The position numbers and the translations under genes were made by a program. 64,000 nt of DNA from IMG/VR virus record IMGVR_UViG_3300035034_002381, positions 1 to 64,000 of that record; one strand, written 5' to 3'. The first letter of the stretch is position 1. The number at the start of each line of letters is the position of its first letter. A model generated the notes under the pieces. The model made no database searches, was not told where the DNA came from, and was given only the letters and a program-made list of their open reading frames with translations. Positions 26,082 through 49,403 of the stretch are shown here, piece by piece. The stretch comes from a virus (lineage: Duplodnaviria; Heunggongvirae; Uroviricota; Caudoviricetes).

Positions 26082-26085
26082 AAAT

Positions 26086-29134: not shown

Positions 29135-31064
29135 GACTATATGTCTTGTTATGATTGTAAAAAATGAGGCAAAAAATTTACCTCGTTGTTTTTCTACGAT
29201 CAAACATATTATTGATTATTGGGTAATTGTTGATACTGGTTCAACTGATAACACACAGGAAGTTATACAGAAAGAGTTAGCCGATATTCCTGGTGTATTA
29301 ATGGAAAGACCGTGGGTCAATTTTGGTCATAATAGATCCGAATCTTTGGCTTTTGCTAAAAACAGAGCAGATTATCTTTTGCTTTGTGATGCTGATGAAC
29401 AAATTATACCTACACACAATTTTGACAAATCTGAGTTGACTCTTGATCAATATCATTTAAGATATAATGGGAGCTTAGATTATATGGTTCCTTATCTTAT
29501 TAAGTCTAATTTGGCTTGGAGATTTGTAGGAGTTACCCATGAATTTTTGACAGCAAGTGACACAAAATCTTCAGGTGAGATTAAAAGCCTTTCAATTAAA
29601 GATTGGGGAGATGGTGGAGCAAAATCTGATAAATTTGAAAGAGACATTAAATTGCTCGAACAAGGTTTGATTGATGAACCGAAGAATGTTAGGTATATGT
29701 TTTATCTAGCAAATTCTTATAAGAATACTAAGGATTTTGATAACGCAATCAAATGGTATAAAAAACGTATCGATGCAGGGGGTTGGATAGAAGAAGTTAC
29801 ATGTTCATATGAATATATGGGAGGATGTTATCAGCAGAAAAATGACCACGGGAATGCGATTAAAACATGGATAGATGGTTATGAATTTAATCCTTCTCGT
29901 GCTGAGTGTTTATATGAGGCAGGTAAATTACTTCGTGAAGAAAATAAGAATAGAATAGCTTACGAATTTTTACAAAAGGCTAAAGAAATTCCATATCCTA
30001 CTAACGATAGATTATTTATCAAAAGAGATGTTTATGAATATTTGATAGATTATGAACTGACTATTTGTGCATATTATGTTAAACCAGAATATGATATGAC
30101 CGAGACATTTAAAAGGCTAATCTTTTGGCCAAGTCATTTACAACAAAACATTATACAAAATTTTAAGTTTTGGGCTAAAGATTTGAATACACTTATAGGT
30201 CAAGAGGAAAGTATGATCTTGGCTAAAGATTTGATTAGTAATGATTTGGTTGAGGGTTTTACACCTAGTTCCCCATCAATTCTTTTTCATAAAAATCGCA
30301 AGTACATAAATGTGCGCCAAGTATCATATAAAATTGACGAAAATGGTAAGTATTTAGATCGTGCAAGTGGAGGTCATTGTAAACATGTGAATACAATTAA
30401 CACAATGTATTGGACTGATGGACCCTCATATGACACGGAAAATTTTAAACCCAATGATATTTCTACTAAACATGTGAATGGTATTGAAGATCTAAAACTA
30501 TATACACACAATGGAGTAATCAAATACACTGGGACAAAATGGTTGGATTATAACAAAATTTCTATAGTTATTGGTGAGTATACTAAAGAAGGTCTAGATA
30601 ATTATGCTATTCTAGAGTCTCCAGAAGGAAGGAATGTTGAAAAAAATTGGGTACCGTTTGGATTAGATAATGAAGAACTTTTTGTATATGATTGGAATCC
30701 AATAAAAATTGGAAGAATCAAAAATAATAAACTAGTAATCAAAAATTTAAAAACTAGTTTTCCTAACTTGCGTGGATCAGCTCCTGGTAAACTTATTGGA
30801 GATCATATCTATTTTTTATGTCATTTTGTAGAATATTCTACACCAAGAATTTACTATCATATCTTCATTAAAATGCATAAAGATAATTGGGAAAAAATCG
30901 AGATTTCTAAACCGTTTGTTTTTGAAAAACCACAAATAGAATATTCAGTAGGATTTGATTATAATATTAAGACTGATGATATACATATTGCATATAGTGT
31001 AAATGATTCGAATGCAAGAATCAAATCTTATTCACAAACACAATTTCAAAAACTTTTTACTTAA
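29121..31064 (+). CDS. GT2-family glycosyltransferase with TPR region and large C-terminal domain
   Basis: ICLVMIVKNEAKNLPRC...VIVDTGSTDNT...LLLCDADE is the GT2 (SpsA-like) pattern; TPR-like YMFYLANSYKNTKDFDNAIKWYKKRI. Confidence 0.65.
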   Translation: MNKPKTICLVMIVKNEAKNLPRCFSTIKHIIDYWVIVDTGSTDNTQEVIQKELADIPGVLMERPWVNFGHNRSESLAFAKNRADYLLLCDADEQIIPTHNFDKSELTLDQYHLRYNGSLDYMVPYLIKSNLAWRFVGVTHEFLTASDTKSSGEIKSLSIKDWGDGGAKSDKFERDIKLLEQGLIDEPKNVRYMFYLANSYKNTKDFDNAIKWYKKRIDAGGWIEEVTCSYEYMGGCYQQKNDHGNAIKTWIDGYEFNPSRAECLYEAGKLLREENKNRIAYEFLQKAKEIPYPTNDRLFIKRDVYEYLIDYELTICAYYVKPEYDMTETFKRLIFWPSHLQQNIIQNFKFWAKDLNTLIGQEESMILAKDLISNDLVEGFTPSSPSILFHKNRKYINVRQVSYKIDENGKYLDRASGGHCKHVNTINTMYWTDGPSYDTENFKPNDISTKHVNGIEDLKLYTHNGVIKYTGTKWLDYNKISIVIGEYTKEGLDNYAILESPEGRNVEKNWVPFGLDNEELFVYDWNPIKIGRIKNNKLVIKNLKTSFPNLRGSAPGKLIGDHIYFLCHFVEYSTPRIYYHIFIKMHKDNWEKIEISKPFVFEKPQIEYSVGFDYNIKTDDIHIAYSVNDSNARIKSYSQTQFQKLFT

Positions 31065-32362
31065 TGTACATTATAAAAAACAATAAACTTGAATCTACTG
31101 ATAATATCGATTTATTTTTTAATGAGATAAATGTTGGACAACATATTGCTAAATATGGATATTTCGAAAGTGACCTTATTAATTGGTTAAAGCTTACATA
31201 TAAAAATAATGATAAAATCTTTTTAGATTTAGGAGCGCACATAGGTTCATATTCAATAGAATTAGCAGAAAATTTTCATTCAGTTCATTCATTTGAACCT
31301 AATCCAACAGTCTATAATCATTTATGTGCTAATGTTGCATTAAAGAGATTATCAAATAGGGTATTTCCACACAGAGTTGCATTATCGGATAATAAATCTA
31401 AACAGCCATATTATGAGAGATCCAAAGATGGTGGAGGTAATGGAATTGAAGTTGTAAGAGAGAACGATAAGCACTCATTCTTTGTAGAATCTAAATGTTT
31501 AGATGATTATTCTTTCGATAAAGAAATCGGTTTGATTAAAATTGATATCGAAGGTCATGAGTATAAAGCTATTTTGGGTGCATATGAAACTTTGAAAAAC
31601 TCATATTTCCCACCTATAATTTTCGAATCTTGGGCGCAAAATACACACCCAGAATATTCACAAGAAATACTTTTAGAAATTCGTGATAAAACATTTGATG
31701 TATTAAAGGATTATGGATACACTGTTAAATCCATAAGTGGATATAATGAAATGTTTATTGCTGTTCAAGAGCGTGAAAAATCTCAAGAAGATATTATTGT
31801 TGAAGGTCTTTTGACAGATAAGTTAGACGTATGGCTTAACTCACCTGGAGGGACTCGAAGCAATTATATAGCCGATGTTCTAGAAAAAAGTAATTTAAGA
31901 GTGAGAAACGAATCCTGGTATAAGTATGGTTGTCATTGGACTTCTCCTTTATTTGAAAGGGAATTTAAAACTACAAGATTGTTTTGCTACACTAGCGATA
32001 TCGGACTCGCATTGACAAGTCAGTTAAATGCCAATACTATTGATAAACTGAATTTTGCAGATTTTTATAATGAACCATGGGATTTATATCGATGGATACA
32101 AAATATTAAAAAACAAGTGATTAACTGGTCGGATCCTGGCGTATTCTTTTTAAATACCGACTATTTAAATGATAAAGATATTCAGTCTGAATTTAAAACT
32201 CTTACTGGAGATAGTTTAGACATATCAGATTTCAGACTTGACCGTAAATCTAAAAAATTACATCCTGCATTAATACAATACATGGATGAGATTAATGAGA
32301 TTAATGAGTTATTAGCAAAATTACCTAATGCCGGTTTTGGCGGAGAAGTTGATGAAGGTTAA
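31064..32362 (+). CDS. FkbM-family methyltransferase with extra C-terminal domain
   Basis: DLGAHIGSYSIELAE...VHSFEPNPTVYNHLCANV...KIDIEGHE. Confidence 0.6.
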   Translation: MYIIKNNKLESTDNIDLFFNEINVGQHIAKYGYFESDLINWLKLTYKNNDKIFLDLGAHIGSYSIELAENFHSVHSFEPNPTVYNHLCANVALKRLSNRVFPHRVALSDNKSKQPYYERSKDGGGNGIEVVRENDKHSFFVESKCLDDYSFDKEIGLIKIDIEGHEYKAILGAYETLKNSYFPPIIFESWAQNTHPEYSQEILLEIRDKTFDVLKDYGYTVKSISGYNEMFIAVQEREKSQEDIIVEGLLTDKLDVWLNSPGGTRSNYIADVLEKSNLRVRNESWYKYGCHWTSPLFEREFKTTRLFCYTSDIGLALTSQLNANTIDKLNFADFYNEPWDLYRWIQNIKKQVINWSDPGVFFLNTDYLNDKDIQSEFKTLTGDSLDISDFRLDRKSKKLHPALIQYMDEINEINELLAKLPNAGFGGEVDEG

Positions 32363-32816: not shown

Positions 32817-33455
32817 ATGAACATATTTGTTCTTGACGAAAATGTCAAAAAATGTGCCGAATATCATTGTGATAAACATGTTGTCAAAATGATTACTGAG
32901 CATAATCAAATTTTGGGTTCGATTTCTTATTTACGTAGAGGTATTTCTAAAAAATCGGAAATAACTGATGAATTTATTCAACAACATTTCCAAAATTTTC
33001 CTAGAAAAAAATTAGCAATTGATATGGATTCATTACCCATTGCTGATCATTCGCCACTTATCAAAAAATTATGGAATTTTGTAAAACCCGCAGAATTGTC
33101 TTGGCCGTACGGTATTGGTTATAAAAATCATCCATGTACACAATGGGCTAATGCGTCTAAAGAAAATTATGATTGGCTATGCTCACTCAATCTTGAATTG
33201 TGTAAAGAATATACTAAACGATATAATCGTCGACATGCTGGTGAGGATATTACTCAATGGTATATTGAAAACGCACCATATCTACCGAATTCTGGCATGA
33301 CTCCATTTGTTTTAGCTATGCCTGATGATTGTAAATCTGATGATCCAGTTGAATCTTATCGAATTTACTACATTTATCATAAATATAAATTTGCCAAATG
33401 GAAAACAAAAGTTCCAAATTGGTATATAAACGTTATAAAACATCAAGAAATATGA
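32817..33455 (+). CDS. conserved hypothetical protein (N-terminus MNIFVLDENVKKCAEYHCDKHVVKM)
   Basis: 212-aa ORF; the N-terminal block looks like a widespread phage and giant-virus family whose function I cannot name. Confidence 0.7.
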   Translation: MNIFVLDENVKKCAEYHCDKHVVKMITEHNQILGSISYLRRGISKKSEITDEFIQQHFQNFPRKKLAIDMDSLPIADHSPLIKKLWNFVKPAELSWPYGIGYKNHPCTQWANASKENYDWLCSLNLELCKEYTKRYNRRHAGEDITQWYIENAPYLPNSGMTPFVLAMPDDCKSDDPVESYRIYYIYHKYKFAKWKTKVPNWYINVIKHQEI

Positions 33456-34009
33456 CAATCAAACACAGAATAACTGATTCTGAAAATACCCATGTTATGC
33501 TCGACATAGAAACTTTGGGTACTGGTGCTAATGCAATCATTTTACAGATTGCAATGGTCAAATTTGGTCTTAACGATCAAAATGGTGAAACAATGAAAAC
33601 TATAGTTAATGTTTTTCCTTGTATCAAAGAACAACATGATGAAGGTAGAACAATGACTTTCGATACAGTTAACTGGTGGCTTGGTCCAGATCATGTGAGC
33701 ATATTAGCAAATCTGCGGAAACAGGAAACATCCAATTTGGTAGATGTTAGATCTCAAATAGCTAAGCACATGGAAGAATTTAGGAAATCGGGAGTTCATC
33801 TGTGGGCAAGGTCACCCAAATTTGACATCAAGATTTTAGAAGATTTTTTAGGAACAGATGTGCCAGAACATTCCCGAAGGCACCAAAGAGATGTTAGAGA
33901 ATATGAATTTATTTCGGGCGATCGCCCAGGTGCATCCCATGATGCAGAAGATGATTGTATTCAACAAATTATATTAGTCACTAATGTTATTCAAAGACTT
34001 TTTATATGA
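33452..34009 (+). CDS. DEDDh 3'-5' exonuclease (DnaQ-like)
   Basis: VMLDIETLG (Exo I) and ASHDAEDDC (H-x4-D Exo III); start set at the ATGA overlap with the previous stop. Confidence 0.65.
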   Translation: MTIKHRITDSENTHVMLDIETLGTGANAIILQIAMVKFGLNDQNGETMKTIVNVFPCIKEQHDEGRTMTFDTVNWWLGPDHVSILANLRKQETSNLVDVRSQIAKHMEEFRKSGVHLWARSPKFDIKILEDFLGTDVPEHSRRHQRDVREYEFISGDRPGASHDAEDDCIQQIILVTNVIQRLFI

Positions 34010-34122: not shown

Positions 34123-35022
34123 ATGATATCAGAAGAAAAATTTCCCGATGGACAAATTAATTTTAAAGCAAATACAGAGGACATCAAAAGTCTTTTAACA
34201 CCACCATACATTTTATCAAATGATAATGCGATAAATTTTACAATTGATCTAAGTAACTGGGATAAATTTCAAACTTTGTTGGCAGCCAATGCAAAATTTA
34301 GACAAACGCACAAACAAATTAATTTACATATAGGTTATCTTTTTGGTTCAAGAAGTGACCGTAAATTTGAACATGACGGAATTAACTATTTTCGTGATGT
34401 AATTGCTAAAACAATCAATGATCAAAATTTCAACAAAGTTACTGTATTTGATCCACACTCACTTGCAGTAGAAAATGCAATTAATAATTGTGAGAGTATT
34501 CATCCGTTCCCACAAATCAATCACCATTTTTTAAATATGGTTGGAAATTTAGATTTATCTGAATATGAAATTGTTATAGCGTCTCCAGACCTTGGGGCAT
34601 ACAAAAAAGTCTTTGGAATTTTTGCTAAATTTTCCGAAAAATATCCAAACATACATTTTAATTTTATTTCCGCAAATAAAATTCGTAGTCTGTCTGGTGA
34701 TATTTCTATGGTTTTAAATCCACCATATAAAGAATTTGACAAATCAAAAAAACGAATTCTATATTTAATTGATGATATTTGTGATGGCGGGAGGACCTTT
34801 ATAGAATTTGCTAAACTTCTTAACGAAGATTTTGAGAAAAAGTATCTATATGTATCACATGGAATATTTTCTAAAGGTCTTGATCCATTATTAGAACATT
34901 TCGATAAAATTTTTACTACAAACAGTATTTCGAATACTTATATCAAATATCTAACAAACGATAATACCATTCTAAATTCTAACATTCTTTTTACCACATT
35001 TATTTCGCAACGCAATGAATAA
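34123..35022 (+). CDS. ribose-phosphate pyrophosphokinase (Prs)-like enzyme; candidate ADPR-pyrophosphate synthetase (Adps) of NARP1
   Basis: 299 aa; VFDPHSLAVENAI resembles the Prs DLHA loop, and YLIDDICDGGRTF is a type I PRPP-binding loop. Confidence 0.6.
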   Translation: MISEEKFPDGQINFKANTEDIKSLLTPPYILSNDNAINFTIDLSNWDKFQTLLAANAKFRQTHKQINLHIGYLFGSRSDRKFEHDGINYFRDVIAKTINDQNFNKVTVFDPHSLAVENAINNCESIHPFPQINHHFLNMVGNLDLSEYEIVIASPDLGAYKKVFGIFAKFSEKYPNIHFNFISANKIRSLSGDISMVLNPPYKEFDKSKKRILYLIDDICDGGRTFIEFAKLLNEDFEKKYLYVSHGIFSKGLDPLLEHFDKIFTTNSISNTYIKYLTNDNTILNSNILFTTFISQRNE

Positions 35023-35989
35023 AAAAGCAACAATTCTTCTTGGACTGCCATTAGCAGGCAAGTCGACTTATATAGGAAACAGAATAGAATATGGTGATTG
35101 GTCAGACACAGGATTAGTTTTAGTATCTGCAGATGATCTTAAAGAAAATCATGAAGATTATGATCCCGACCATGCGTATAAAATTCATGAGTGGTCAGTT
35201 AAAGAGGCCGAAAGGCAAATGAAAGAATACTCAGAATTTGGATCAAAACACATTATCATGGACGGTGGTGGCATTAACAATTCATATACTCGTAGAATTA
35301 TGTCTGATCTACGTTTAAAAGGTTATGAAATTGAACTTATACATATTAAAACGCCGCTCCAAGTTTGTCTTCTTAGAAATGAGAAGCGGGTCCGCAAAGT
35401 TCCAGTGCATGATATTGTAACAAAGGCAGCTCGAGAACGTAAACAATATGAGATACTTAAAGATGTTGTAGATAGTGTTACTATAGTTCCATATTTCACA
35501 AACAAACATATTTTTATAGATATGGATGGAGTTATTGCGGGACAGTCTGTCTTGCCAGAATTTGAAGGAAAAATAGATTTTGTTAATAGCGAAATTTTTA
35601 CTATTTTACCACCTGTTCATCAAGTTATTGATAAACTTAATAGTCTTGATTCTGAAAAACATACACTTTATATTTTATCAGCAACACCGAATTCATATTC
35701 GTATACTGAAAAACATGATTGGTTAGATAAACATTTTAACATACCAAGAGAACGCAGATTTTTTGTAAATGCTGGAAAGCATAAAGCAGAAATGTTAGAA
35801 AATCTAAGAATAAAACTCAAAACTGATAAACGTGATGTCACTCTGATTGAAGATACGCACTCGACACTTAAAGATGTTAGAGACCTTAGAATGAATCCAA
35901 TACATGTATCTGAATTTTTATCAAATGATTTTTTGCGAGATGAAGAATTATATGACTATAAATATTACGAAAACCCAAATAATAAATAA
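35015..35989 (+). CDS. P-loop kinase fused to HAD phosphatase (T4 polynucleotide kinase/phosphatase-like architecture)
   Basis: GLPLAGKST Walker A; IMDGGGINNSYTRR and RNEKRVRKVPVHDI parallel T4 Pnk ISDTNLNPERR and RNSKRGTKAVPIDV; C-terminal FIDMDGVIA is a DxDG HAD motif. Confidence 0.5.
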   Translation: MNKKATILLGLPLAGKSTYIGNRIEYGDWSDTGLVLVSADDLKENHEDYDPDHAYKIHEWSVKEAERQMKEYSEFGSKHIIMDGGGINNSYTRRIMSDLRLKGYEIELIHIKTPLQVCLLRNEKRVRKVPVHDIVTKAARERKQYEILKDVVDSVTIVPYFTNKHIFIDMDGVIAGQSVLPEFEGKIDFVNSEIFTILPPVHQVIDKLNSLDSEKHTLYILSATPNSYSYTEKHDWLDKHFNIPRERRFFVNAGKHKAEMLENLRIKLKTDKRDVTLIEDTHSTLKDVRDLRMNPIHVSEFLSNDFLRDEELYDYKYYENPNNK

Positions 35990-35995
35990 AAAGAT

Positions 35996-37714
35996 ATGAG
36001 AAAAATGAACGCTTTCTTAGCAACCGATGGTTATAAAACAGGCCATCACATAATGTATCCTGAAGGAACTATTGAGGTATATGATAATTTAACACCCCGC
36101 AGTTTTAAATACGCAATCAACAATGTCGAGTATGTTATTGCTGTGGGTCAAAAAATGGCAGTCACAGAAATCAACGATATGTTTAACGAAACATTTTTTA
36201 GACATGAAGATGTTGAAAGACTTGCCTTTCATTTATTTAGACAAGGATTACCTGAACAAAAAGCTAAAGAAACCGCAAGAAATAAAATTAAAGCCGAAGT
36301 ATGTAGTGAAATCAAAAAGGAGTTTTCGTTATATCTAGATATGAAATATGATGTTTCGCATATTGAAAGACTTTGGGATTTAGGATATCTTCCTGTAAAA
36401 ATAAAAGCTTTACCAGAAGGTGTAAAGGTCCCAATAAAGGTTCCTGTACTTACAATTGTAAATACTTTGCCAGATTTTTTCTGGTTACCTAATTTCTTGG
36501 AGACTATTATTTCTAATTTGTTATGGAAACCTATGACATCTGCAACTATTGCGTACGAGTTCAAGAAAACTTTGACTAAATGGGCAATGAAAACTGATAG
36601 CAAAAATGTTTCTATTGTAGAATTTCAGGCACATGATTTTTCAATGCGAGGAATGGATTCTATTTATGCTGCTGCTTCATCAGGTTTAGGTCATGCATCA
36701 TCATTCCTTGGAAGTGATACAATACCAGTAATTCATGCAGCAAGATATTATTATGGTGATCAAGGTCCTATTATACATTCTGTAAATGCTACAGAACACA
36801 GTGTCATGTGTGCTGGAGAAAAAGATAGTGAAATTGAAACATTCAGACGATTATTGCGTCTTTTCCCGACAGGAATCTTATCAGTAGTTTCTGATACTTG
36901 GGATTTATGGAAAGTGATAGTAAAATATCTTCCTGAATTAAAGGACGAAATTCTAAAAAGAGCAGGAAAACTGGTTATTAGACCTGACTCTGGAAATCCT
37001 GTTGATATTATTTGTGGTTTTGATCATAATAGATTTGATACACACGAAGAAGCAGAAAAATATTATAGAACTTATGGAATAAAAGATCCAAAATACTATG
37101 TAAAAAACGAATTCTTTACTGTAATTTCACATTCAGGCAACAATTTTAAATATGCAGATTTAGAAGAGACTCCTGCTGATAAAGGAGTCGTGCAATTATT
37201 ATGGGAAATCTTTGGAGGGCAAATAAATGAAGATGGATTCAAAGTTTTAAATGAACACATTGGCGCAATTTATGGTGATAGTATTAATTTCGAAAGAGCA
37301 AATCAGATTTGTGAGAGACTAGCCAGCAAAGGATTTGCGACTACAAACGTTGTACTTGGAATAGGATCCTTCACATATCAGTATAACACTCGTGATAACC
37401 ATGGATTTGCCGTTAAAGCTACTCATATAACTATTCAACATCCTGATGGAAAAATGGAAGAAAGAGACATATTCAAAGACCCACTAACATCGGTAGGTAC
37501 AAATAAAACTAGTGCTAAAGGATTTATTCAAGTACTTAAAGAAAATGGAGAGTATATTATGAGAGATCAGGTTAGTAGAGAACAAGAAGAAAATTCTTTA
37601 CTTACAATGATTTATTTAGATGGTAAAGTTCTTTCCGAAGACACACTCAAAAGTATTCGTAGAAATGTGAATAACGAATTGGCTGTTGAATTAGGATTAT
37701 ATGAAGTAGCATAA
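35996..37714 (+). CDS. nicotinamide phosphoribosyltransferase (NAMPT/NadV)-like enzyme; candidate Namat of NARP1
   Basis: N-terminus LATDGYKTGHHIMYPEGT matches the NAMPT TDSYK..H pattern; 572 aa, longer than typical NAMPT. Confidence 0.65.
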   Translation: MRKMNAFLATDGYKTGHHIMYPEGTIEVYDNLTPRSFKYAINNVEYVIAVGQKMAVTEINDMFNETFFRHEDVERLAFHLFRQGLPEQKAKETARNKIKAEVCSEIKKEFSLYLDMKYDVSHIERLWDLGYLPVKIKALPEGVKVPIKVPVLTIVNTLPDFFWLPNFLETIISNLLWKPMTSATIAYEFKKTLTKWAMKTDSKNVSIVEFQAHDFSMRGMDSIYAAASSGLGHASSFLGSDTIPVIHAARYYYGDQGPIIHSVNATEHSVMCAGEKDSEIETFRRLLRLFPTGILSVVSDTWDLWKVIVKYLPELKDEILKRAGKLVIRPDSGNPVDIICGFDHNRFDTHEEAEKYYRTYGIKDPKYYVKNEFFTVISHSGNNFKYADLEETPADKGVVQLLWEIFGGQINEDGFKVLNEHIGAIYGDSINFERANQICERLASKGFATTNVVLGIGSFTYQYNTRDNHGFAVKATHITIQHPDGKMEERDIFKDPLTSVGTNKTSAKGFIQVLKENGEYIMRDQVSREQEENSLLTMIYLDGKVLSEDTLKSIRRNVNNELAVELGLYEVA

Positions 37715-37790: not shown

Positions 37791-39107
37791 ATGAAAAGAT
37801 CTGGTATTAAAGTAGCGGTATTTCCCATGGGTTCAATTATCCGATTTAGGAAAGATGGAATCAAAAGATCGTTTGGTCGTTTAGAATATTATAATTTGAT
37901 TTGGGCGTTGGCCAGAAATCCAAGTATTTCGGAAATTTGGCTTTTACAAGTTTCTGATTGGGAACAATTGACTGATGATGAAAAAATTGATTTTGATCCT
38001 AGAAAAGTTATTCGTAACATTTATGCGGAATTTAAAGTAGACAAACCTAATAGTAAAAAACAAGAATCTTACGCTGATCTTTGGAACAAAATTTCTCATC
38101 TTAAGCAACCTGATTTTGCAATTGTATTTTCTACACAAGGTCTTACTAGAATTTCTATACCAAATATTATACCTAAAGTAAAAAATCCTGAAGAAAAAGC
38201 TAAATGTTTAGAAATGACAATACGCTATTGTTCTTCACAAATGTATTATCTAAACAATTCAGAAATTCCATATTTTTTGGTAGTTAATGATGGCAGATTT
38301 TTGTATACTAATACACATACAAAATATCTGGATATGTTTAATTTACCCAAAGAAATCATGGGATTTTACAAAAATGATGATTATATACTTCATCATTATG
38401 ATAAAATGCCGGATGATGGTGGCAAAATGACTACTGATGTTGTTAAGTTATCATACAGTAAAATGATTTGGCTTAATAATATCAGTGAAAAAATCATAGA
38501 CCCTGCCAACATAGAGAAAACTGAAAAGTTTTCTATTGTAGCTATGCAGGCAGCTTATGGTAAAGATAAACATGATCCTAGATATTCTATTCTAAAGGAG
38601 TGGTTTTTAGACGTAGATGGAAATGAAGATGTTTCGATTTATGGTAAATGGGGAGAATCTTATGTTAAAGATTATCAACATTTTAAAGGCTTAAAGCCAC
38701 ATACTGAAATTGATGAAATTTTCAAGAAAACTAGGTACACATTATTGATTCCAACAGAACCTTTATGGGTAACTACGAAAATATGTGAGATGTTGAAATT
38801 GGGTGTTGTCCCGTTTTTGCATCCTAGTTATGATGAAAAAAATCTATCATTTGGAGAGGATTCATTTTTTAGAGTAAAAAATCCGGAAGATTTAAAAAAG
38901 AAGATTTCATTTTTAGAAAAAAATCCAGATAAAAGAATCAAGCTCATACAAAAGGCTCAAGAAAAATATATGGAAGGTGTCACAAACGGAACTTGTGTCG
39001 TCGACGCAATTAATCCATATCTTCAACGGGCTAATATTGATGTAGAATTGCAACATGGATTTAGTGATGAACTAATTCGTAAGCGCAAAGTTAAAAAATT
39101 ATTTTAA
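37791..39107 (+). CDS. GT-B-like glycosyltransferase, possibly T4 beta-glucosyltransferase-like (tentative)
   Basis: 438 aa; C-terminal layout FSIVAMQAAYGKDKHDPRY...YTLLIPTEPLWVTTKICEMLKLGVVPFL...FFRVKNPEDLKKKISFLEKNP resembles the T4 BGT C-terminal half from memory. Confidence 0.4.
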   Translation: MKRSGIKVAVFPMGSIIRFRKDGIKRSFGRLEYYNLIWALARNPSISEIWLLQVSDWEQLTDDEKIDFDPRKVIRNIYAEFKVDKPNSKKQESYADLWNKISHLKQPDFAIVFSTQGLTRISIPNIIPKVKNPEEKAKCLEMTIRYCSSQMYYLNNSEIPYFLVVNDGRFLYTNTHTKYLDMFNLPKEIMGFYKNDDYILHHYDKMPDDGGKMTTDVVKLSYSKMIWLNNISEKIIDPANIEKTEKFSIVAMQAAYGKDKHDPRYSILKEWFLDVDGNEDVSIYGKWGESYVKDYQHFKGLKPHTEIDEIFKKTRYTLLIPTEPLWVTTKICEMLKLGVVPFLHPSYDEKNLSFGEDSFFRVKNPEDLKKKISFLEKNPDKRIKLIQKAQEKYMEGVTNGTCVVDAINPYLQRANIDVELQHGFSDELIRKRKVKKLF

Positions 39108-39110
39108 ATT

Positions 39111-40319
39111 ATGAAGAATAAATTTTCTAAGGATGGACATTGGAGATTCGGTACTATAGTTCCATTAATCGGGGGAATGACCATATCCAACCAACAAGCA
39201 ACCGGAGATAATCCGGACTTTTTAATATCTTATCCAGCGTTTGCAGGCAATGATTCTCATTGTGTTAATCATTTTAAAGATACCCCATATTATGTAGTCG
39301 ACCCAGAAACTAATGAATTACCTGAAGACGATACTTTTCAAAATGTAGATTTTGTGTCTGCAGTGTGCCCATGTGCAGGACTTTCTATGTTAAATACTTC
39401 TAAGAAAAGAGGATCTGATGCAGAAATGAATAATTGGATGTATAAATCTGCAGAATTAGTTTTAGAACAAATTAAACCCAAAGTTTTTTGGGGGGAGAAT
39501 GCACCAGGTCTATATACAAAATCTGGTGAAGGTGTAGTCAAAAAATTGAGAGAAATTGCTGAAAAGAATGGTTATGTACTTTCATTAGTCAAAACTAATA
39601 CCTTTTTACATGGTATACCACAACATAGAACTAGAACTTTTTACTTTTTTTGGCAAGGTAAACATGCGCCAATACTGAATTATACCGAGCGGGATGCACC
39701 AACTCTTAAAGAATATCTAGATCAAATTCCTGAAAATGCTTCTATGCAAGATGAAAAATTCGGCTTAGAAAGTATGAATAGTCTTTGGTTTAAATTCTTA
39801 AAAGATCAAAACATAAAAATTTCAGATGTACAAAAAAGTACGTGTAAATCAATTATGGATTATTGTGTAGCCGAAAAATTGATGCCGAAAATGGTTGATT
39901 GGGGTGAAGAAAATGGATATGATAAAATGGTCAGGACTGCTAAGCATATTCTACATAAACAATCTATGGGTAAAGGTTGGTGGGACGCTACACCATTAGT
40001 ACCAACAGATACTATTAATGCGCTGATTAGTAAGAATGCTGGAATTGTCCACCCGAACGGAGAAAGACCAATTAATACCCGAGAAGCTTTATGGTTAATG
40101 GGATTACCACATGATTTTACTATGGTCGATTATGACAATAGAAAAAATAGCAATCACATTTGCCAAAACGTACCGGTAACCACTGCAAAAGACTGGACAT
40201 TCGAAGTGATGAAATTTATCAATAAAGATATTGAAAAAATTGCAACGCCGTTTCTAAAACAAAACAATATCAAACAAAGAATAGATTTACAAGAAAATAA
40301 ATCCAAAGCACTTTTTTAA
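39111..40319 (+). CDS. DNA (cytosine-5) methyltransferase-family enzyme
   Basis: motif IV AVCPCAGLS, motif VI FWGENAPGL, motif VIII GIPQHRTRTFYF. Confidence 0.75.
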   Translation: MKNKFSKDGHWRFGTIVPLIGGMTISNQQATGDNPDFLISYPAFAGNDSHCVNHFKDTPYYVVDPETNELPEDDTFQNVDFVSAVCPCAGLSMLNTSKKRGSDAEMNNWMYKSAELVLEQIKPKVFWGENAPGLYTKSGEGVVKKLREIAEKNGYVLSLVKTNTFLHGIPQHRTRTFYFFWQGKHAPILNYTERDAPTLKEYLDQIPENASMQDEKFGLESMNSLWFKFLKDQNIKISDVQKSTCKSIMDYCVAEKLMPKMVDWGEENGYDKMVRTAKHILHKQSMGKGWWDATPLVPTDTINALISKNAGIVHPNGERPINTREALWLMGLPHDFTMVDYDNRKNSNHICQNVPVTTAKDWTFEVMKFINKDIEKIATPFLKQNNIKQRIDLQENKSKALF

Positions 40320-40321
40320 AT

Positions 40322-41761
40322 ATGAAACCTTTATTTGTAATAGAAGACGAAATACAAAATAAGTCTAATATATTCGAACTAATTAATCCACAAAAATTAG
40401 ATCCGAATAAAAAGACTATATTAATAATCACATACAAAAATTTTGCTGGTGATTTTGACTATATTTATGGATTTAATCACAAGATTATTGAATTATTAAA
40501 AGATCAATATAATATTGTATTTGCTGGAAAGGAAATTAAAAAGAATGTCATCGATATAGATAATTTCTATTTAATTGATATGAAAGGTTATACGAGTTTA
40601 AATCAGAATAGATTTAAGCGCAAAAAAGAAGATCCTAACAGTAACCAAATTAACAGAAATATTTTATGGGAAGAATTTGAATCTGCGTTCGGTGATTTAG
40701 AAATTGATTTAATTTTTTATGCGACACCAGAGTATGCGATTTTACCTCATGGTAAATCTTATCATAAAGATTTCAAAGAAATACAAAACGAAATTCATGA
40801 TTATGTAGGCGCAGATACTAAAAAGATTCAGCGTATTAACGAAATTATGTACGATATCTATGAAAATTATGATACCCATGCATCTATTTTAATGTTTTCT
40901 GCCTGGCATAAAAATGTCATGATGAACTTGCCGGTTTTTCTAAAAGAAAGAAATTCGTTTAAAGTCATTGCATTTTCTATTGATCCTGCAAATACTTATC
41001 GATATTTGGAACACCATGGAATAGAATGTACCAATTTTTATTTTGAAGAAGATAAACGTGGTACTCGCAATTTCGAAAAATTTCCAATAGCACATCTTCA
41101 ACATTTAATTTTTGAAAACAACGAAAATCCTACAGAAAAATATAGTTTAGAAAAAACTACAGATTTTTTCTTTATGGGAACGATTATTCAAGAAAAGGGA
41201 AGTAGAATGCAGATGTGGTATGAATTTTTATCAGATTTAAAATTAGACGATAAATCTAATTTTTGGATCCCAATTAAACATAATGGAATTTACCGAACTA
41301 AAAAACAAGAAACTAGTGGTCATACCAAAAAGGGTTTACAGATTATTGATGAAAAATTCACAGACATTAAAAATGCTATCATAAATCATCCCAATTTTTC
41401 TGGACATTTATTACCATCAGAAGTCAAAAAACATATTGTAGCTTATAAATATTCATTAGTATTGCGATGTGTTTCTATTTATGATAGTCTAAATTTTAGA
41501 CCTATTTATTATGTTTATTTAAACATTCTTCCATTTTTAGATCATATGTATGATCCAGATTATTTACAGATTCCTAAGAAATTTCAAGACAAATTAGCAG
41601 TATCTAATTCACGAGATATCGAGGATAGAATCAAATATTATAATCAAAATCCAAAAGAAAGAATTCAGTTATTAAAAGAAATGAGAGAGTTTTTTGAAAT
41701 AGACGAGTTTTTAGAAGATTGGAAAAACATAACACTAAAACATATAGATCATGCTAAATAA
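40322..41761 (+). CDS. paralogous GT-B-like glycosyltransferase (tentative)
   Basis: 479 aa; FFFMGTIIQEKGSR...KYSLVLRCVSIYDSLNFRPIYYVYLNILPFL...AVSNSRDIEDRIKYYNQNP has the same layout as 37791. Confidence 0.35.
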   Translation: MKPLFVIEDEIQNKSNIFELINPQKLDPNKKTILIITYKNFAGDFDYIYGFNHKIIELLKDQYNIVFAGKEIKKNVIDIDNFYLIDMKGYTSLNQNRFKRKKEDPNSNQINRNILWEEFESAFGDLEIDLIFYATPEYAILPHGKSYHKDFKEIQNEIHDYVGADTKKIQRINEIMYDIYENYDTHASILMFSAWHKNVMMNLPVFLKERNSFKVIAFSIDPANTYRYLEHHGIECTNFYFEEDKRGTRNFEKFPIAHLQHLIFENNENPTEKYSLEKTTDFFFMGTIIQEKGSRMQMWYEFLSDLKLDDKSNFWIPIKHNGIYRTKKQETSGHTKKGLQIIDEKFTDIKNAIINHPNFSGHLLPSEVKKHIVAYKYSLVLRCVSIYDSLNFRPIYYVYLNILPFLDHMYDPDYLQIPKKFQDKLAVSNSRDIEDRIKYYNQNPKERIQLLKEMREFFEIDEFLEDWKNITLKHIDHAK

Positions 41762-42398
41762 GATATTTAAAAGTTTGAGTAATTCTGAAAATGAAGCATT
41801 ATGTGTACAAAGAACTAATCTTTTATTCGAAGCATTAGATATTATAGAAAAACATAATGGGAAAGCTTGGTTAGATTGTGGTACTTTGTTAGGTGCGTAT
41901 AGAGATGGTGAATATATTCCATGGGACGTCGATGTAGATTTAGGAATTAATATCGAGGATGTTACTGAGGAAATGCTAAATGATTTCAGAGATAAATATA
42001 ATATACGACACGATAATGGAAACTTAGATCAATACAAATTTTGCTCATTTTATAAGAGAGATGAAAATGGTGATAATTACAAATTTAGAAGATGTAATTT
42101 ATGGATTGATTTACATATGTACTATCCAAATTATGATGGTACAAGAACTATGACAATTACTACAGGAAAAATTAGAGCACCTAAAAAAATCTTTCCAGCA
42201 CCTGCTGAATGTATCGAGAATTTAGAACAAATTGAATGGCAAGGTAGAAAAGTAAATATTCCTAGTAAAACTGTAAAATATTTAGAACAATGGTATGGAT
42301 ATGATTGGGACGTACCTAACGATAAATGGAAAATGTCTCCGAGTTGGTACGATAATCCAACAAATGACAAAATTATTCAAGGTAAAACCCTCTTTTAA
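41751..42398 (+). CDS. LicD-family phosphotransferase (phosphocholine/phospho-alditol transferase family)
   Basis: KAWLDCGTLLGAYRDGEYIPWDVDVDLGI matches the LicD signature W.d.GTLLGa.R...IPWDdD.D. Confidence 0.75.
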   Translation: MLNKIFKSLSNSENEALCVQRTNLLFEALDIIEKHNGKAWLDCGTLLGAYRDGEYIPWDVDVDLGINIEDVTEEMLNDFRDKYNIRHDNGNLDQYKFCSFYKRDENGDNYKFRRCNLWIDLHMYYPNYDGTRTMTITTGKIRAPKKIFPAPAECIENLEQIEWQGRKVNIPSKTVKYLEQWYGYDWDVPNDKWKMSPSWYDNPTNDKIIQGKTLF

Positions 42399-42416: not shown

Positions 42417-43178
42417 ATGCATATATTAAATGAATATTTTGACAAGATTTATATTACCAACCTCGACTCGGCCAAAGATAGATATGAAAGATTATCTAAA
42501 GAACTGGATTCATTTGGCGTTGTTTATGAAAGATTCAAAGCATTGACTCCAGATGATGCAAGAAAGGTATTTGCTGAAAAAGGCCTAAAGATTCCTAAAA
42601 GTAATAGTGGAGCTCTTGGTTGCGCAACTTCACATTATATATGCTGTCAACAGGCTGCGAAAAATGGACTTAAAAGAATTTTGATTCTTGAAGATGATGC
42701 AAGAATAACCGATATAGATTTTAATCAAGAGACTCAAAATTTAGTTGAACAAATAAGAAAAACCGACTGGTTTTATCTAAAGCTTGGTTATAATATCACT
42801 AACCAGATGTTAGACGAAAATTTTGAGTTTCATAGAGTTTCAGAAAATTTGTTTAATCTTTCAAAAAGTTCTATGACCACCGCTATAGCTTTCAATATCG
42901 AAAAAATCGTAGAGGATGAGAATGCTTCCACAGTTTTTATTTCTGATCACGCATTAGAAAATAGTAAATTGAATATTCATATTGACCATAGATTGTTTAT
43001 GATGTGTAACGAATTCGGAATTCTACAATGCCATTATTATCCAGCAATATTTACTCAGACTGATGGGTATTCATACATAGGAAAAGAAGAAAGGAAATTC
43101 TCTAATATTGATAAAAGAACAAACAGAATATTCAAAGAGCATATACAATCTTCTAGCTCAACAAAAAAATTATTTTAA
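42417..43178 (+). CDS. glycosyltransferase family 25 (LgtB/Lic2B-like)
   Basis: FDKIYITNLDSAKDRYERL..., GALGCATSHY and ILILEDDARI. Confidence 0.65.
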   Translation: MHILNEYFDKIYITNLDSAKDRYERLSKELDSFGVVYERFKALTPDDARKVFAEKGLKIPKSNSGALGCATSHYICCQQAAKNGLKRILILEDDARITDIDFNQETQNLVEQIRKTDWFYLKLGYNITNQMLDENFEFHRVSENLFNLSKSSMTTAIAFNIEKIVEDENASTVFISDHALENSKLNIHIDHRLFMMCNEFGILQCHYYPAIFTQTDGYSYIGKEERKFSNIDKRTNRIFKEHIQSSSSTKKLF

Positions 43179-43196: not shown

Positions 43197-43976
43197 ATGG
43201 AATTTTTAAATATACTACAATCGGAATTACAATCGGGATTTATTTACATACCTAATAGAGGCAATGCTGGGGATGTTGTCATTCAACAATCTACTATTAA
43301 ATTTTTTGAAAAAAATAATCTAAACTTCGAATTAGGAAAAAACACTACAACTTATGTTGGGGAAAATCTAGTTTATGGTGGGGGTGGAAATTTGATTGGA
43401 AAATACCAACCGGCTAAAAAATTCATAAAATTAAATGCGGAAAAAAATCATATAATGATATTACCGCATACAATTAAGAACAGCGAAAAGTCTTTAAATA
43501 TGCTGAATAAGGATTCTATTGTTTTTTGCAGAGAAAGAATATCTCATGAATATGTTAGTAAATTTATTGAAAAATGTTATTTACATAAAGATATGGCTTT
43601 TCATCTAGATTTAGAATCTTATAAAAAGGAATCTAAATATGAAGTAGGAAATATATTTAGAATGGATGTCGAATCTTCTAATAACGTTAAAAAAATTCCA
43701 TCTAATAATGTGGATATATCCAGTGTTTTTAATCGTAGAAATCAGCATACAAATTTAGAAGTAGCTCAAGCTGTATTTGATGATTTTGTTAATTATATAG
43801 CAGATTTCGAAATTGTAAACACAGATAGATTACATATTGCAATTATTGCTGCAATATTGGGAAAAAATGTTAATCTTTATCCTAACTCATATTATAAAAA
43901 TAAAGCCGTATATGACTATACATTATCGTTAGAATATCCCAACGTCAATTTTATCGATGAAGTAAAATATAGATGA
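43197..43976 (+). CDS. polysaccharide pyruvyl transferase family protein
   Basis: PNRGNAGDVVIQ, VYGGGGNL and NTDRLHIAIIAAILGKNV. Confidence 0.6.
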   Translation: MEFLNILQSELQSGFIYIPNRGNAGDVVIQQSTIKFFEKNNLNFELGKNTTTYVGENLVYGGGGNLIGKYQPAKKFIKLNAEKNHIMILPHTIKNSEKSLNMLNKDSIVFCRERISHEYVSKFIEKCYLHKDMAFHLDLESYKKESKYEVGNIFRMDVESSNNVKKIPSNNVDISSVFNRRNQHTNLEVAQAVFDDFVNYIADFEIVNTDRLHIAIIAAILGKNVNLYPNSYYKNKAVYDYTLSLEYPNVNFIDEVKYR

Positions 43977-44030: not shown

Positions 44031-44603
44031 ATGAAAACAATTATTATTGAAGGATGTGATAGAGTAGGAAAAGATACAGTTTGTAATGGAATAAAACTGA
44101 CTGCGGACTGTTTACTTTATCGACATTGGCTTAAACCTAAAGGTCAAACTAATGATGAAAGAGTTAATTATCAAAAGACAACATTTAAAAAGGAATTTGA
44201 TTTACGTAAATCTTTTTTGGATGATTGGTATCTTAATGATAATGATAAAAATTCTGATTTAATTCTTTGGAACAGAAGTCATATTGGAGAATATGTTTAT
44301 GGAAAACTATATCGAGACTATGATCCAAATTGGATTTATAATCTGGAAAATCTTTATAATTTTTCTGATAATAACATTTATTTGGTAATGTTATATGCAG
44401 ATCCAGATTTTTTGTGTGAGAATGATGATGGACATTCATTCAGTTCTGATATTGAAGGTAAAACGCAAGAAATCAATTTATTCCACGAAGCAGTGGATAA
44501 AAGTCTAATACCAAATAAAATAAAAATAAAAGTAAATGACGGAAAACGTTACCGAGACAGAAAAGAAATTAGAAAAGAAATTTTTGATCGAATCTTCAAT
44601 TAA
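44031..44603 (+). CDS. deoxynucleoside monophosphate kinase (T4 gp1-like)
   Basis: IIIEGCDRVGKDT resembles T4 gp1 FLSGVKRSGKDT; 190 aa; directly upstream of the hydroxymethylase. Confidence 0.6.
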   Translation: MKTIIIEGCDRVGKDTVCNGIKLTADCLLYRHWLKPKGQTNDERVNYQKTTFKKEFDLRKSFLDDWYLNDNDKNSDLILWNRSHIGEYVYGKLYRDYDPNWIYNLENLYNFSDNNIYLVMLYADPDFLCENDDGHSFSSDIEGKTQEINLFHEAVDKSLIPNKIKIKVNDGKRYRDRKEIRKEIFDRIFN

Positions 44604-45468
44604 TCAAAGATTCCAAGAACTTATTGAGCAGATTGAGATATCTGCAGAAATGAATGGTACAGTTAATCCACGAGATTTACTGGTTAAAGAATCACTACTT
44701 ACAGGATTTTCTATTGATCCAAGATATCCATGTATAGATTTCGAAGCAAGAAAATTCAACTATAAATATTTTGCTGCTGAGGTTGCATGGTATTTATTAA
44801 AAGATAATACAACAGAATTTATTTCTAAGTTTTCCAATTTCTGGAATAATATTACAAATCCAGATGGAACTATTAATTCTAATTATGGAAAAATTCTATT
44901 AACACAAATAAACAATACTATCACACCAATAGCATGGGTAGTAAATTCTTTAAGAAAAGATAAAAATTCTAGACAAGCAATTGCATATATTGGAAGTAAG
45001 GATTTTCAATATGAAGGAAATAAAGATTTTGTGTGTACTCAATATATTTTGTTTTTTATTCGAAACGATGAACTTCATATGAAAGTTCAAATGAGATCAA
45101 ACGATATTTTTTATGGATTATCTTATGATGCTCCTTGGTTTTCGTTAGTTCATCAAAATACATTTCTTGAACTAAAAGAATTATATCCAGAATTAAAAAT
45201 TGGAAAGTATTTTCATTTTTCTGATAACTCACATTTTTATCAAAGACATTTTAGTAAAGCTCAAGAAGTCTTACAAGAAGAGGTTAAGCTTGGTCCTAAA
45301 ATTGTTCTTGAGAAACCTTTATGGAGAACTTATGAAAATGGTAATTGCGTTATTACTGAAACGGCTAGTAATTATATAGATTTTTTCAATAAAAATTTAG
45401 GTGATTTATCCGAGTATAAAAACGAACAATTTAAAGAAGTTCTCAAAAAAATCGTAAAAATTAACTAA
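44536..45468 (+). CDS. deoxycytidylate hydroxymethylase (T4 gp42-like; thymidylate synthase superfamily)
   Basis: GTINSNYG, NSRQAIAYI, DFVCTQYILFFIRN (catalytic Cys), MRSNDIFYGLSYDAPW (Asp where ThyA has Asn) and NSHFYQRHF parallel T4 gp42 blocks; start uncertain (68-nt overlap; alternative ATG at 44650). Confidence 0.75.
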   Translation: MTENVTETEKKLEKKFLIESSINQRFQELIEQIEISAEMNGTVNPRDLLVKESLLTGFSIDPRYPCIDFEARKFNYKYFAAEVAWYLLKDNTTEFISKFSNFWNNITNPDGTINSNYGKILLTQINNTITPIAWVVNSLRKDKNSRQAIAYIGSKDFQYEGNKDFVCTQYILFFIRNDELHMKVQMRSNDIFYGLSYDAPWFSLVHQNTFLELKELYPELKIGKYFHFSDNSHFYQRHFSKAQEVLQEEVKLGPKIVLEKPLWRTYENGNCVITETASNYIDFFNKNLGDLSEYKNEQFKEVLKKIVKIN

Positions 45469-46681: not shown

Positions 46682-46718
46682 GATTTTCTTTTCATAATTA
46701 ATCCATTCTGTGGATTAA

Positions 46719-46749
46719 AGCCCGAGCAAATTAATGCTCGGGCTTTTTT
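46719..46749 (+). terminator. intrinsic terminator
   Basis: agcccgagc-aaattaat-gctcgggct followed by a T-run; a second small hairpin lies just upstream. Confidence 0.85.
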
Positions 46750-48273: not shown

Positions 48274-48876
48274 ATGCAAGGACAATTATACCAATGGCAA
48301 AAAGGTGAATACATTGAACAATATTCTAAAGCTATCGATGTAGAAGAAGAAGGCGAGATGTCATTTCTGATTTTTGAAGATGGTAGAAGAATTAACATCG
48401 AACTTATTGAAGAATTTCTTATACCAGTAAATTCAGAAGACGAAGGTTATATTATCAGAGAAGAAGTTATAGATGATTTAGTAGAAATGAAAGGTAAAGA
48501 CGGTGGGATATATACTGTTCCTGGACCAGATCATGGTAAGCGTCGGATCACGAAAAAACCTAAAACCAAACAAGCCAAACCCATCATCACATCGACACCT
48601 AAACAACAAATTAAAGAGGAACCTAAAAATCTTTATCCTAATGATCCTATAATAGCACTCTTAGAAAAATCAAAAAAGGTCACCAAACCTATTAATATAA
48701 CATTACGTTTAGATATTATTACACAAGGTACATACGATCTGATTATTGACAATTTTGAAGATAGTGAAGAAAGCATTGTTGAATATTTGATTTCTTCTAT
48801 CGATAAAAAGGAATTAGTGGAAAGTATAAAGGTTCAACTTAAAGGTTCGTATTCGAAAACACCAATCACAGTATGA
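48274..48876 (+). CDS. hypothetical protein
   Basis: start trimmed to MQGQLYQ to remove the overlap with 47931-48263. Confidence 0.6.
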   Translation: MQGQLYQWQKGEYIEQYSKAIDVEEEGEMSFLIFEDGRRINIELIEEFLIPVNSEDEGYIIREEVIDDLVEMKGKDGGIYTVPGPDHGKRRITKKPKTKQAKPIITSTPKQQIKEEPKNLYPNDPIIALLEKSKKVTKPINITLRLDIITQGTYDLIIDNFEDSEESIVEYLISSIDKKELVESIKVQLKGSYSKTPITV

Positions 48877-49403
48877 AAGATAAAAATTTAAAATATGAAT
48901 CGAAGAGATTTAACGTTGTTAAAAAACAGGGTAGAGTTAAAATAGATTATAAAAAAATGACAGTTGGCGTTTTACCATATACTATTAAAGATGGACTCCT
49001 AGACAAAATTGGTATTCTGCATGAATGGAATCCTACAAGACAAGATGATTTTTGTCACACGATAATCACTGGTACTGTAGACCCAGAAGATACTGATTAT
49101 CTTTTTGCGGCAAAAAGAGAATTACTTGAGGAAGGTGGCATTAAAGATACTAATGACGATAATTGGATATTTTTAGGTTCATTTTACGTTTCAAAAGGCA
49201 GTAATGAAATGTGTCACACCTTTGCAGTAGATGTTACAGATCTAGAAATTGGTGAAGCAGTAGGAGATGGTTCTGATGCTGAAGAAAAATCTGAATTTTC
49301 TTTAATGGATTCAGGAAATGCAATTACAATTACTAATGAAAGTTTAGTCTTAGCCTCATTTCTAAGACTGTTTGACTTCTTTTATCAAAAGAATAATGGG
49401 TAA
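48873..49403 (+). CDS. Nudix hydrolase
   Basis: Nudix box GTVDPEDTDYLFAAKRELLEEGGI (G-x5-E-x7-REUxEExGU). Confidence 0.8.
   Translation: MKDKNLKYESKRFNVVKKQGRVKIDYKKMTVGVLPYTIKDGLLDKIGILHEWNPTRQDDFCHTIITGTVDPEDTDYLFAAKRELLEEGGIKDTNDDNWIFLGSFYVSKGSNEMCHTFAVDVTDLEIGEAVGDGSDAEEKSEFSLMDSGNAITITNESLVLASFLRLFDFFYQKNNG

Follow-up and report, generated by a model that had tools for sequence, protein, structure and literature searches.

Whether phage DNA is open to restriction enzymes, to CRISPR nucleases and to sequencing chemistries depends on its hypermodifications, and the enzymes that create these become biotechnology tools. In the T4 system, 5-hydroxymethylcytosine (hmC) is made as a nucleotide through gp42 and is glucosylated on DNA by the beta- and alpha-glucosyltransferases. 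The Afh clusters of phages RB69, DLP3 and HY126 are associated with arabinosyl-5-hydroxycytosine, the sugar-supply genes of RB69 being gp51-55 (PMC13326640). Other phage clusters combine a methyltransferase, a 5mYOX (TET) enzyme and glycosyltransferases (Burke et al. and Pyle et al.; PMC8256090; bioRxiv 10.1101/2023.12.21.572611), and in the metagenome survey of Pyle et al. the neighbors of transferase genes included synthase homologs as well as methyltransferases and APH kinases. That survey therefore already covers the general class to which the locus described here belongs, but not its architecture, its puzzling methylase or the C-terminal tail found on several of its products. This locus lies in a 64,000-nucleotide phage fragment (IMG/VR record IMGVR_UViG_3300035034_002381, positions 1 to 64,000; hereafter the window), which is ~31% GC, carries all its genes on the plus strand and encodes a T4-type major capsid protein (Gp23) and prohead protease. 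At its center is a C5-cytosine DNA methyltransferase gene (39111-40319, plus strand, 402 aa; the methylase) placed between the genes for two GT-B glycosyltransferases, GT1 (37791-39107, plus strand, 438 aa) and GT2 (40322-41761, plus strand, 479 aa).

The three open reading frames (ORFs) are separated by gaps of 3 nt (GT1/methylase) and 2 nt (methylase/GT2), and both their coordinates and this spacing, as given in an earlier reading of the same DNA (hereafter the original prediction), were reproduced. The trio is part of a larger gene cluster, inside which promoter and terminator scans returned sites no more numerous than in shuffled sequence; the sole strong terminator found in these scans lies at 46717-46746. 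At the DNA level, 37791-41761 had no match among 50,697 phage records. We consider it likely that the cluster is a DNA glyco-hypermodification module. The candidacy of the trio as a DNA-acting unit, put forward in the original prediction, is supported by the recurrence of its three genes, across several divergent phages, in clusters that also contain a gp42-type homolog and genes for sugar nucleotides. With somewhat less confidence, we favor a fuller account, in which a hypermodification core that begins with a thymidylate-synthase (TS) homolog is joined by a fail-safe methylase and by tails that dock enzymes on the sliding clamp.

Predicted hmC synthesis and the paired GT-B transferases

The TS homolog (44536-45468, plus strand) carries the active-site signature of the T4 gp42-type dCMP hydroxymethylases, and its best match in the PDB is the T4 dCMP hydroxymethylase itself (E 1.4e-14). 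Numbered as in E. coli ThyA, it carries Asp at both L143 and N177, keeps Asp169 (the invariant D190 of the window protein) and has the catalytic Cys146, a combination identical to that of T4 gp42; moreover, the strings KDFVCT and MRSNDIFYGLSYD are present both in this protein and in all its cluster relatives. The acidic residue at L143 is the one associated with water activation, and the Asp at N177 with cytosine specificity. A 2026 study of RB69 and DLP3 in Nucleic Acids Research associated N177D with dCMP specificity and L143D/E with hydroxymethylation, and identified D169N as a marker of the newly found 5-hydroxy-dCMP synthases (PMC13326640). Given that the gp42-type residues are present and Asp169 is kept, the predicted product is therefore 5-hydroxymethyl-dCMP rather than 5-hydroxy-dCMP. 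A 5-hydroxy-dCMP synthase of the RB69 gp48 type was rejected as a candidate assignment, as D169N is absent. The ORF is real, and the earlier proposal that hmC is made at the nucleotide level by this gene fits its active-site signature. Immediately adjacent is a thymidylate-kinase-like (TMK-like) nucleotide kinase (44031-44603, plus strand; phrog_761 E 1.5e-8, with a weak PF02223 match), which also lies beside the TS-like gene in the related contigs L004, L007, L008, L009, L018 and L019, and whose position next to the synthase homolog matches that of DLP3 gp78 and RB69 gp45 (PMC13326640). In L018 the TS-like gene nearest to that of the window (60% identity) is broken into two ORFs (L018:5309-6205), possibly through a frameshift, an intron or an assembly error.

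The AlphaFold2 models of GT1 (pLDDT 85.4, pTM 0.86) and GT2 (pLDDT 92.2, pTM 0.90) assume the same GT-B fold over the whole protein, and for both the nearest solved structure among 48,164 chains is the T4 DNA beta-glucosyltransferase (BGT). At the sequence level the two proteins share only a C-terminal region, of 57 aa in BLASTP (30% identity, E 5e-5) and of 94 columns in a profile-profile comparison with hhalign (probability 97.8%, E 1.2e-12). Hence, the common C-terminal layout described in the original prediction, which called the two paralogous, is present, whereas paralogy over the full length is not supported by sequence. Pfam Glyco_trans_1_2 is passed by GT1 (27.8 bits; threshold 25) and not by GT2 (13.1 bits). 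Neither protein matched the BGT families of Pfam and PHROG or any NCBIfam model, sequence-profile searches of the PDB gave no useful match to either one, and in PHROGs GT1 had no match and GT2 only a marginal one, to an unannotated family. Likewise, a tblastn search of GT2 against phages gave no match and a scan of IMG/VR with GT1 gave no confirmed relative; the metagenomic homologs that were gathered (24 for GT1 and 34 for GT2) provided alignments of 24 and 32 sequences, respectively. The link to BGT rests on predicted structure because the hhalign comparisons with the T4 BGT sequence are not significant (GT1 E 0.034, GT2 E 0.009; probability <5%). Thus, the resemblance to BGT proposed in the original prediction stands at the level of the fold, with BGT as the top PDB match, and fails at the level of the sequence family.

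The T4 BGT-like DNA glycosyltransferases presumably constitute CAZy family GT63, and we take the catalytic base of BGT to be Asp100 and its UDP-binding residues to be R191, R195, R269 and E272. Following the last strand of the N-terminal domain there is an invariant Asp in both families, D167 of GT1 (in NDGR, compare TDIR in BGT) and D221 of GT2, and the weak hhalign alignments place R264, K330 and E333 of GT1 and R295 and R393 of GT2 opposite the BGT residues. From the gene context, we infer that the acceptor of both transferases is hmC in duplex DNA.

A probable source of the sugar lies 11 kb upstream of the trio, where a small HAD phosphatase for a sugar bisphosphate, AfhF-like (26563-26973, plus strand; TIGR01689 E 3.2e-28), is followed by an AfhE-like fusion of a sugar-1-phosphate nucleotidyltransferase with an APH/choline-kinase-like kinase (26960-28660, plus strand; PF00483 E 6e-17). 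The HAD gene is found immediately 5' of the AfhE-like gene in every related cluster. In the Pseudoalteromonas phage vB_Psh_XG4 (XG4), the HAD protein adjoining gp42 is 46% identical to that of the window, and the equivalent fusion protein is 29% identical (E 2e-56). In tblastn searches the AfhE-like protein hit its counterparts in HY126 and in RB69-like phages, among them a gene annotated 'UDP-arabinose biosynthesis', although this homology is weak (24-26% identity, E ~1e-7). By these similarities the pair corresponds to AfhF and AfhE, the enzymes of NDP-arabinose (NDP, nucleoside diphosphate) synthesis in those phages. Just 5' of the pair is a SET-domain protein with the lysine-methyltransferase fold (26041-26505), which is kept in the related contig L007 (1-424). 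Just 5' of the related cluster in L004, a gene flanked by those for a nucleotidyltransferase and for methyltransferases (3872-5101) specifies a RuBisCO large-subunit-like protein (PF00016 E 3.6e-32), which is also seen in L006 and may be part of an unusual sugar pathway.

Downstream of GT2 are genes for a LicD-family phosphotransferase, which would transfer a phospho-alcohol from a CDP-alcohol (41751-42398, plus strand; PF04991 E 9.8e-17; NF045866 72.8 bits, under the cutoff), a GT-A glycosyltransferase of family 25 (GT25; 42417-43178, plus strand; PF01755 E 1.9e-17; phrog_2835 'glucosyltransferase' E 1.9e-13) and a polysaccharide pyruvyl-transferase-like protein (43197-43976, plus strand; PF04230 E 3.6e-13). 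The LicD gene is accessory, with no counterpart identified in the relatives examined. GT25 is a candidate for the addition of a second sugar, and shows a weak similarity, under the cutoff, to the TET-associated glycosyltransferases (PF20691 TAGT, E 8e-4), while the pyruvyl-transferase-like protein is a possible accessory enzyme of glycan tailoring. Further possible tailoring genes, with a putative link to DNA, were recognized through Pfam between the AfhE-like gene and the trio: a GT2+TPR glycosyltransferase (29121-31064, plus strand), with homologs in L004, L008 and L009, and an FkbM methyltransferase (31064-32362, plus strand), with FkbM-type (Methyltransf_21) genes in L004 and L008.

We propose that the TS homolog would turn dCMP into 5-hydroxymethyl-dCMP, which the TMK-like kinase next to it would pass on to the dNTP pool, such that hmC enters DNA at replication. 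The AfhF-like phosphatase and the AfhE-like kinase/nucleotidyltransferase would make an NDP-sugar, by homology putatively that of a pentose such as arabinose. After replication, GT1 and GT2 would move this sugar onto the hydroxymethyl group in DNA, and GT25, possibly along with LicD and the pyruvyl-transferase-like protein, would extend or decorate it. The embedded methylase, dependent on S-adenosylmethionine (SAM), would most likely act on freshly replicated DNA and methylate cytosine that escaped replacement, with the K-x-L-F tails of GT1, the methylase, LicD and GT25 serving to dock these enzymes on the sliding clamp.

The core set of HAD, AfhE-like, GT1, GT2, methylase, TMK-like and TS-like genes is seen in at least four divergent phage lineages, including marine and freshwater contigs (L004-L009), XG4, L019 and the T4-like L020. 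Both L019 and L020 were reached through GT2 homologs, and in L020 the cluster is surrounded by genes for the clamp loader, regA, a full-length PolB, UvsX and gp41. In XG4, a cultured relative that is open to experiment, the order is gp42 homolog, HAD, AfhE-like, GT1 homolog, a second GT-B-like protein and methylase homolog, followed by a small ORF and a gp56-type dCTPase. Assignment of this second XG4 transferase as a GT2 ortholog was rejected, given that it has no detectable sequence similarity to GT2 (BLASTP E 0.59). Contigs L004-L009 instead show the order HAD, AfhE-like, GT2, GT1, GT25, methylase, variable genes, TMK-like kinase and TS-like gene; in L007, a GIY-YIG/NUMOD3 homing-endonuclease-like gene (12188-12928) is inserted between the GT25 and methylase genes. 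L017 keeps the TS-like, methylase and GT1 genes with different sugar genes, and L016 keeps GT1 and the methylase amid amino-sugar and replication genes. As the gene order varies everywhere, the arrangement of a methylase sandwiched between two transferases, which gave the original prediction its theme, is incidental and specific to the window phage; the conserved feature is the joint membership of both GT-B proteins and the methylase.

The embedded methylase and the C-terminal tails

The methylase matches PF00145 nearly end to end (E 8.5e-24, 85 bits against a gathering threshold of 22), with its residues 20-361 covering positions 10-317 of the 324 in the profile; the stricter NCBIfam model TIGR00675 is not reached (55.9 against a cutoff of 100.65). 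The strings reported earlier for motifs IV (PCAGLS), VI (ENAPGL) and VIII (QHRTRT) are all present, and motifs I, IV, VI, VIII, IX and X are intact. In 19 diverse members of the family Cys88, E129-N130-A131-P132, Q171/R173/R175, P18-L19-x-G21-G22 and Q352-N353-V354-P355 are invariant. Homologs are numerous (2,597 at E<=1e-10); a scan of IMG/VR with the methylase found one short contig. By its motifs, this protein looks like an ordinary SAM-dependent cytosine-5 methylase without any sign of altered chemistry. The suggestion that it is something other than a simple methylase found no support, as the canonical motifs are invariant and distant relatives (31-45% identity) in the cyanophage S-TIM5 and in contig L010 lack transferase neighbors. 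In S-TIM5 the product of gp076 (L002:6763-7599), annotated as a thymidylate synthase and encoded ~2.4 kb from the methylase homolog, has Asp at ThyA N177 and is probably dCMP-specific.

The presence of a C5 methylase alongside a pathway expected to remove plain cytosine is puzzling because some of the relatives also encode a dCTPase: with a pair of gp42 and gp56 as in XG4, hardly any plain cytosine is expected in the phage DNA, and L010 encodes a gp56-type dCTPase 6 kb from its methylase homolog. A role as a fail-safe on cytosines that escaped replacement is the reading we tentatively prefer, with the odds slightly against it.

The second feature that stands out is a shared C-terminus. Four cluster proteins end in K-x-L-F, namely GT1 (VKKLF, 39090-39104), the methylase (SKALF, 40302-40316), LicD (GKTLF, 42381-42395) and GT25 (TKKLF, 43161-43175), all on the plus strand. 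A hydrophobic residue followed by Phe at the C-terminus is found in 4 of the 74 window ORFs, all four of them in the cluster (P(>=4)=2e-4; P(all four in cluster)=6e-5). The tail is kept in 23 of 24 GT1 homologs, an LF ending is seen in 86 of the top 120 methylase homologs, and the GT25 genes of L004-L007 also encode an LF tail. In GT1 the tail is disordered and basic, appearing as a low-confidence coil in the AlphaFold2 model, and in the methylase it sits on a C-terminal extension; the pyruvyl-transferase-like protein has no LF tail. Beyond these families, the related contigs encode further GT-A-like proteins, as well as an ECF-type sigma factor, that bear the tail.

The C-termini of T4 gp43, gp33 and gp55 bind the gp45 clamp. 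In L016 (13179-14324) the C-terminal half of PolB ends in YTTSIF, at the exact position of the SLDFLFG tail of T4 gp43, and in the same contig the methylase ends in KTESVF and the GT1 homolog in NKSLF. Similarly, in L020 (regions 1420-3915 and 11401-12681) PolB ends in NTLEDLFS and the methylase in NSLESLFV. Thus, the tails of these two contigs resemble, and covary with, the PolB tail encoded in the same contig. The enzymes of these clusters that act on soluble substrates (TS-like, kinase, AfhE-like and epimerases) lack the tail, although in L019 hydrophobic dipeptides do terminate small HAD-type proteins. We therefore propose that the tail tethers to the sliding clamp those modification enzymes that act on DNA. 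As in the clamp-binding tails of T4 gp43 and gp55, the motif is short and hydrophobic; here it follows a flexible basic linker and has Leu-Phe as the last two residues of the protein. The motif of gp43 is likewise at the extreme C-terminus, whereas SLDFLY of gp55 lies six residues from the end. The form K/T-x-L-F-COOH differs from T4 SLDFLFG. Clamp binding is putative, its likelihood falling a little short of an even chance. We know of no earlier description of such a tail on a DNA glycosyltransferase or a phage methylase. If the proposal is right, DNA-modifying enzymes riding the sliding clamp via a short tail would be a phage parallel to the tethering of eukaryotic DNMT1 to PCNA.

Several points weigh against this account. 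The base chemistry of these phages' DNA is predicted from genes alone, and by sequence (Pfam, hhalign) neither GT1 nor GT2 belongs to the T4 BGT family. LicD, pyruvyl-transferase, GT2-TPR and FkbM proteins are typically enzymes of cell-surface polysaccharides. No SIS-domain protein, as expected of an arabinose-5-phosphate isomerase, was matched among the scanned ORFs of the window, although the window covers just a portion of the genome and the host might supply such an enzyme instead. The window has no clamp or polymerase gene, and GT2 and the XG4 proteins lack the tail. Finally, plain cytosine on which a fail-safe methylase could act would be scarce given the gp56-type dCTPase of XG4 and L010, and perhaps given the PRA-PH (MazG-like) pyrophosphatase domain of L020.

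The methylase might alternatively be a motif-specific orphan that protects against restriction, adjoining the sugar genes because phage DNA-modification genes cluster and having no tie to hmC or the transferases. Its full set of canonical motifs, its homologs without transferase neighbors in S-TIM5 and L010, and the precedent of T4, where an unrelated Dam methylase exists beside hmC glucosylation, are all consistent with this. Against it, a TS-like gene lies within ~10 kb of the methylase in 11 of 13 sampled contexts, with Asp at N177 in all those inspected, and this linkage outlasts a complete change of the sugar genes in L016 and L017. Furthermore, in L008 and L017 the methylase gene shares or overlaps the stop codon of its neighbor, and its tail is like those of the transferases; we therefore give the orphan explanation perhaps one chance in a few. 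A chemical role for the methylase homolog appears far less probable. Here it would attack C6 of hmC or an intermediate so that groups at the 5-methylene could be exchanged, or would offer flipped bases to the transferases, rather than donate methyl groups to plain cytosine. In vitro, C5-methyltransferases reportedly can act at C5 of hmC by adding or removing aldehydes and by coupling thiols (Liutkeviciute et al.), and both the co-occurrence of a gp56-type dCTPase in XG4 and L010, implying little plain cytosine, and the conserved linkage to TS-like genes would suit such a role. Yet the SAM-binding and catalytic motifs look fully standard, T4 BGT works without such a helper, and this analysis obtained no positive evidence for it.

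It is also improbable, if marginally less so than the chemical role, that the transferases, LicD and the pyruvyl-transferase-like protein assemble or modify a glycan that is carried by virion proteins or the host envelope, with the methylase and TS homolog as unrelated neighbors. LicD, GT25, PS_pyruv_trans, GT2-TPR and FkbM are classic enzymes of lipopolysaccharide, teichoic acid or capsule, and ~65% of phage glycosyltransferase contigs have no nearby base-modification enzyme (Pyle et al.). This is countered by T4 BGT being the single best structural match of both GT-B proteins, by the recurrence of GT1 and GT2 together with a gp42-type enzyme, as well as with a kinase and a DNA methylase, in at least four lineages, by the location of the L016 and L020 transferases among replication genes, and by the presence on GT1, GT25 and LicD of a tail of the methylase and polymerase type. 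The interpretation first offered for the trio is partly supported: its BGT-like transferases and its DNA-acting module find support, and a special role of the methylase in concert with the transferases does not. In its broadest form, which we regard as speculative and rather unlikely in full, a widespread class of aquatic T4-like phages would build a complex glycan on pre-replicatively installed hmC, pentosyl or hexosyl and perhaps decorated with phospho-alcohol or pyruvyl groups. The DNA-acting enzymes (BGT-like GT-B and GT-A transferases, LicD and an obligatory methylase) would be recruited to the fork by a polymerase-like, clamp-binding tail, and the methylase would be integral rather than an incidental orphan, either as a proof-reader that leaves no cytosine unmodified or as a catalyst on hmC.

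Other genes of the window

Immediately upstream of the modification cluster and at 48873-49403 are genes that together resemble a set for NAD salvage or reconstitution, with the regions 34123-37714 and 48873-49403 encoding a PRPP-synthetase-like protein (PRPP, phosphoribosyl pyrophosphate), a kinase plus HAD/NT5C (PNK-like) protein, a nicotinamide phosphoribosyltransferase and a NUDIX hydrolase. Further 5' is a denV-like pyrimidine-dimer DNA glycosylase (32817-33455), in which the 81 positions of the profile are spread over 140 residues and which may hold an insertion, and a 3'-5' exoribonuclease (Rv2179c-like; 33398-34009) overlaps the end of its gene. Right behind the major capsid gene, a 561-aa ORF (21117-22802) with weak REase_MTES_1575 and DUF7487 matches may be a homing-endonuclease-like insertion. 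Elsewhere, the window encodes a 665-aa protein with a pappalysin-type M43 metallopeptidase domain, unusual for a phage (12713-14710). The genes for baseplate and tail are followed by one for a 401-aa protein (62635-63840) that has three S1 RNA-binding repeats. There are also 21 tRNA genes in three arrays (229-1094, 3901-4355 and 9277-10979), with three copies of tRNA-Met(CAT) and duplicated Tyr, Ile and Arg(TCT).

Comparison with known modification systems

The methyltransferase-5mYOX(TET)-glycosyltransferase clusters likewise have a C5 methylase adjoining GT-A and GT-B transferases, and the weak match of GT25 to the TET-associated family is a further likeness. In contrast to them, no TET/JBP dioxygenase was found by Pfam among the window ORFs of at least 125 aa, nor in the precomputed Pfam annotations of loci L004-L010 and L016-L020, and a TET-dependent pathway was rejected for this reason. 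According to the prediction, the TS homolog provides the hydroxymethyl group before replication, so that the methylase is not needed to supply 5-methylcytosine for oxidation.

With T4 the window shares the gp42 active-site signature, BGT as the nearest solved fold of its transferases, and the T4-type virion genes. It differs in that these transferases have no detectable membership of the BGT sequence family, and in that the window phage has genes of its own for an NDP-sugar pathway, T4 drawing instead on the UDP-glucose of its host. Moreover, its cluster includes additional genes, for GT-A, LicD and pyruvyl-transferase proteins, and embedded in it is a C5 methylase, an enzyme that T4 lacks. 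The clusters of RB69, DLP3 and HY126 resemble it in their GT-B transferases, a TMK-like kinase by the synthase homolog, a small HAD phosphatase and a nucleotidyltransferase/kinase fusion. They differ from it in lacking a C5 methylase, while the window has no detected arabinose-5-phosphate isomerase and its synthase homolog keeps Asp169, which predicts a hydroxymethyl rather than a hydroxyl group.

Of the features described here, the presence of the methylase and the tail are the two that are unexplained, and both are testable in the cultured relative XG4. By analogy, the cluster is predicted to work like the T4 system of hmC glucosylation and to be laid out like the arabinosylation clusters of RB69, DLP3 and HY126; it predicts a genuine pathway to pentosyl- or glycosyl-5-hydroxymethylcytosine, different from the one to arabinosyl-5-hydroxycytosine, which has recently been revised. 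What sets it apart from these systems is the combination of a gp42-type enzyme and an Afh-type sugar supply with GT-A, LicD and pyruvyl-transferase genes and with a C5 methylase that is always present.

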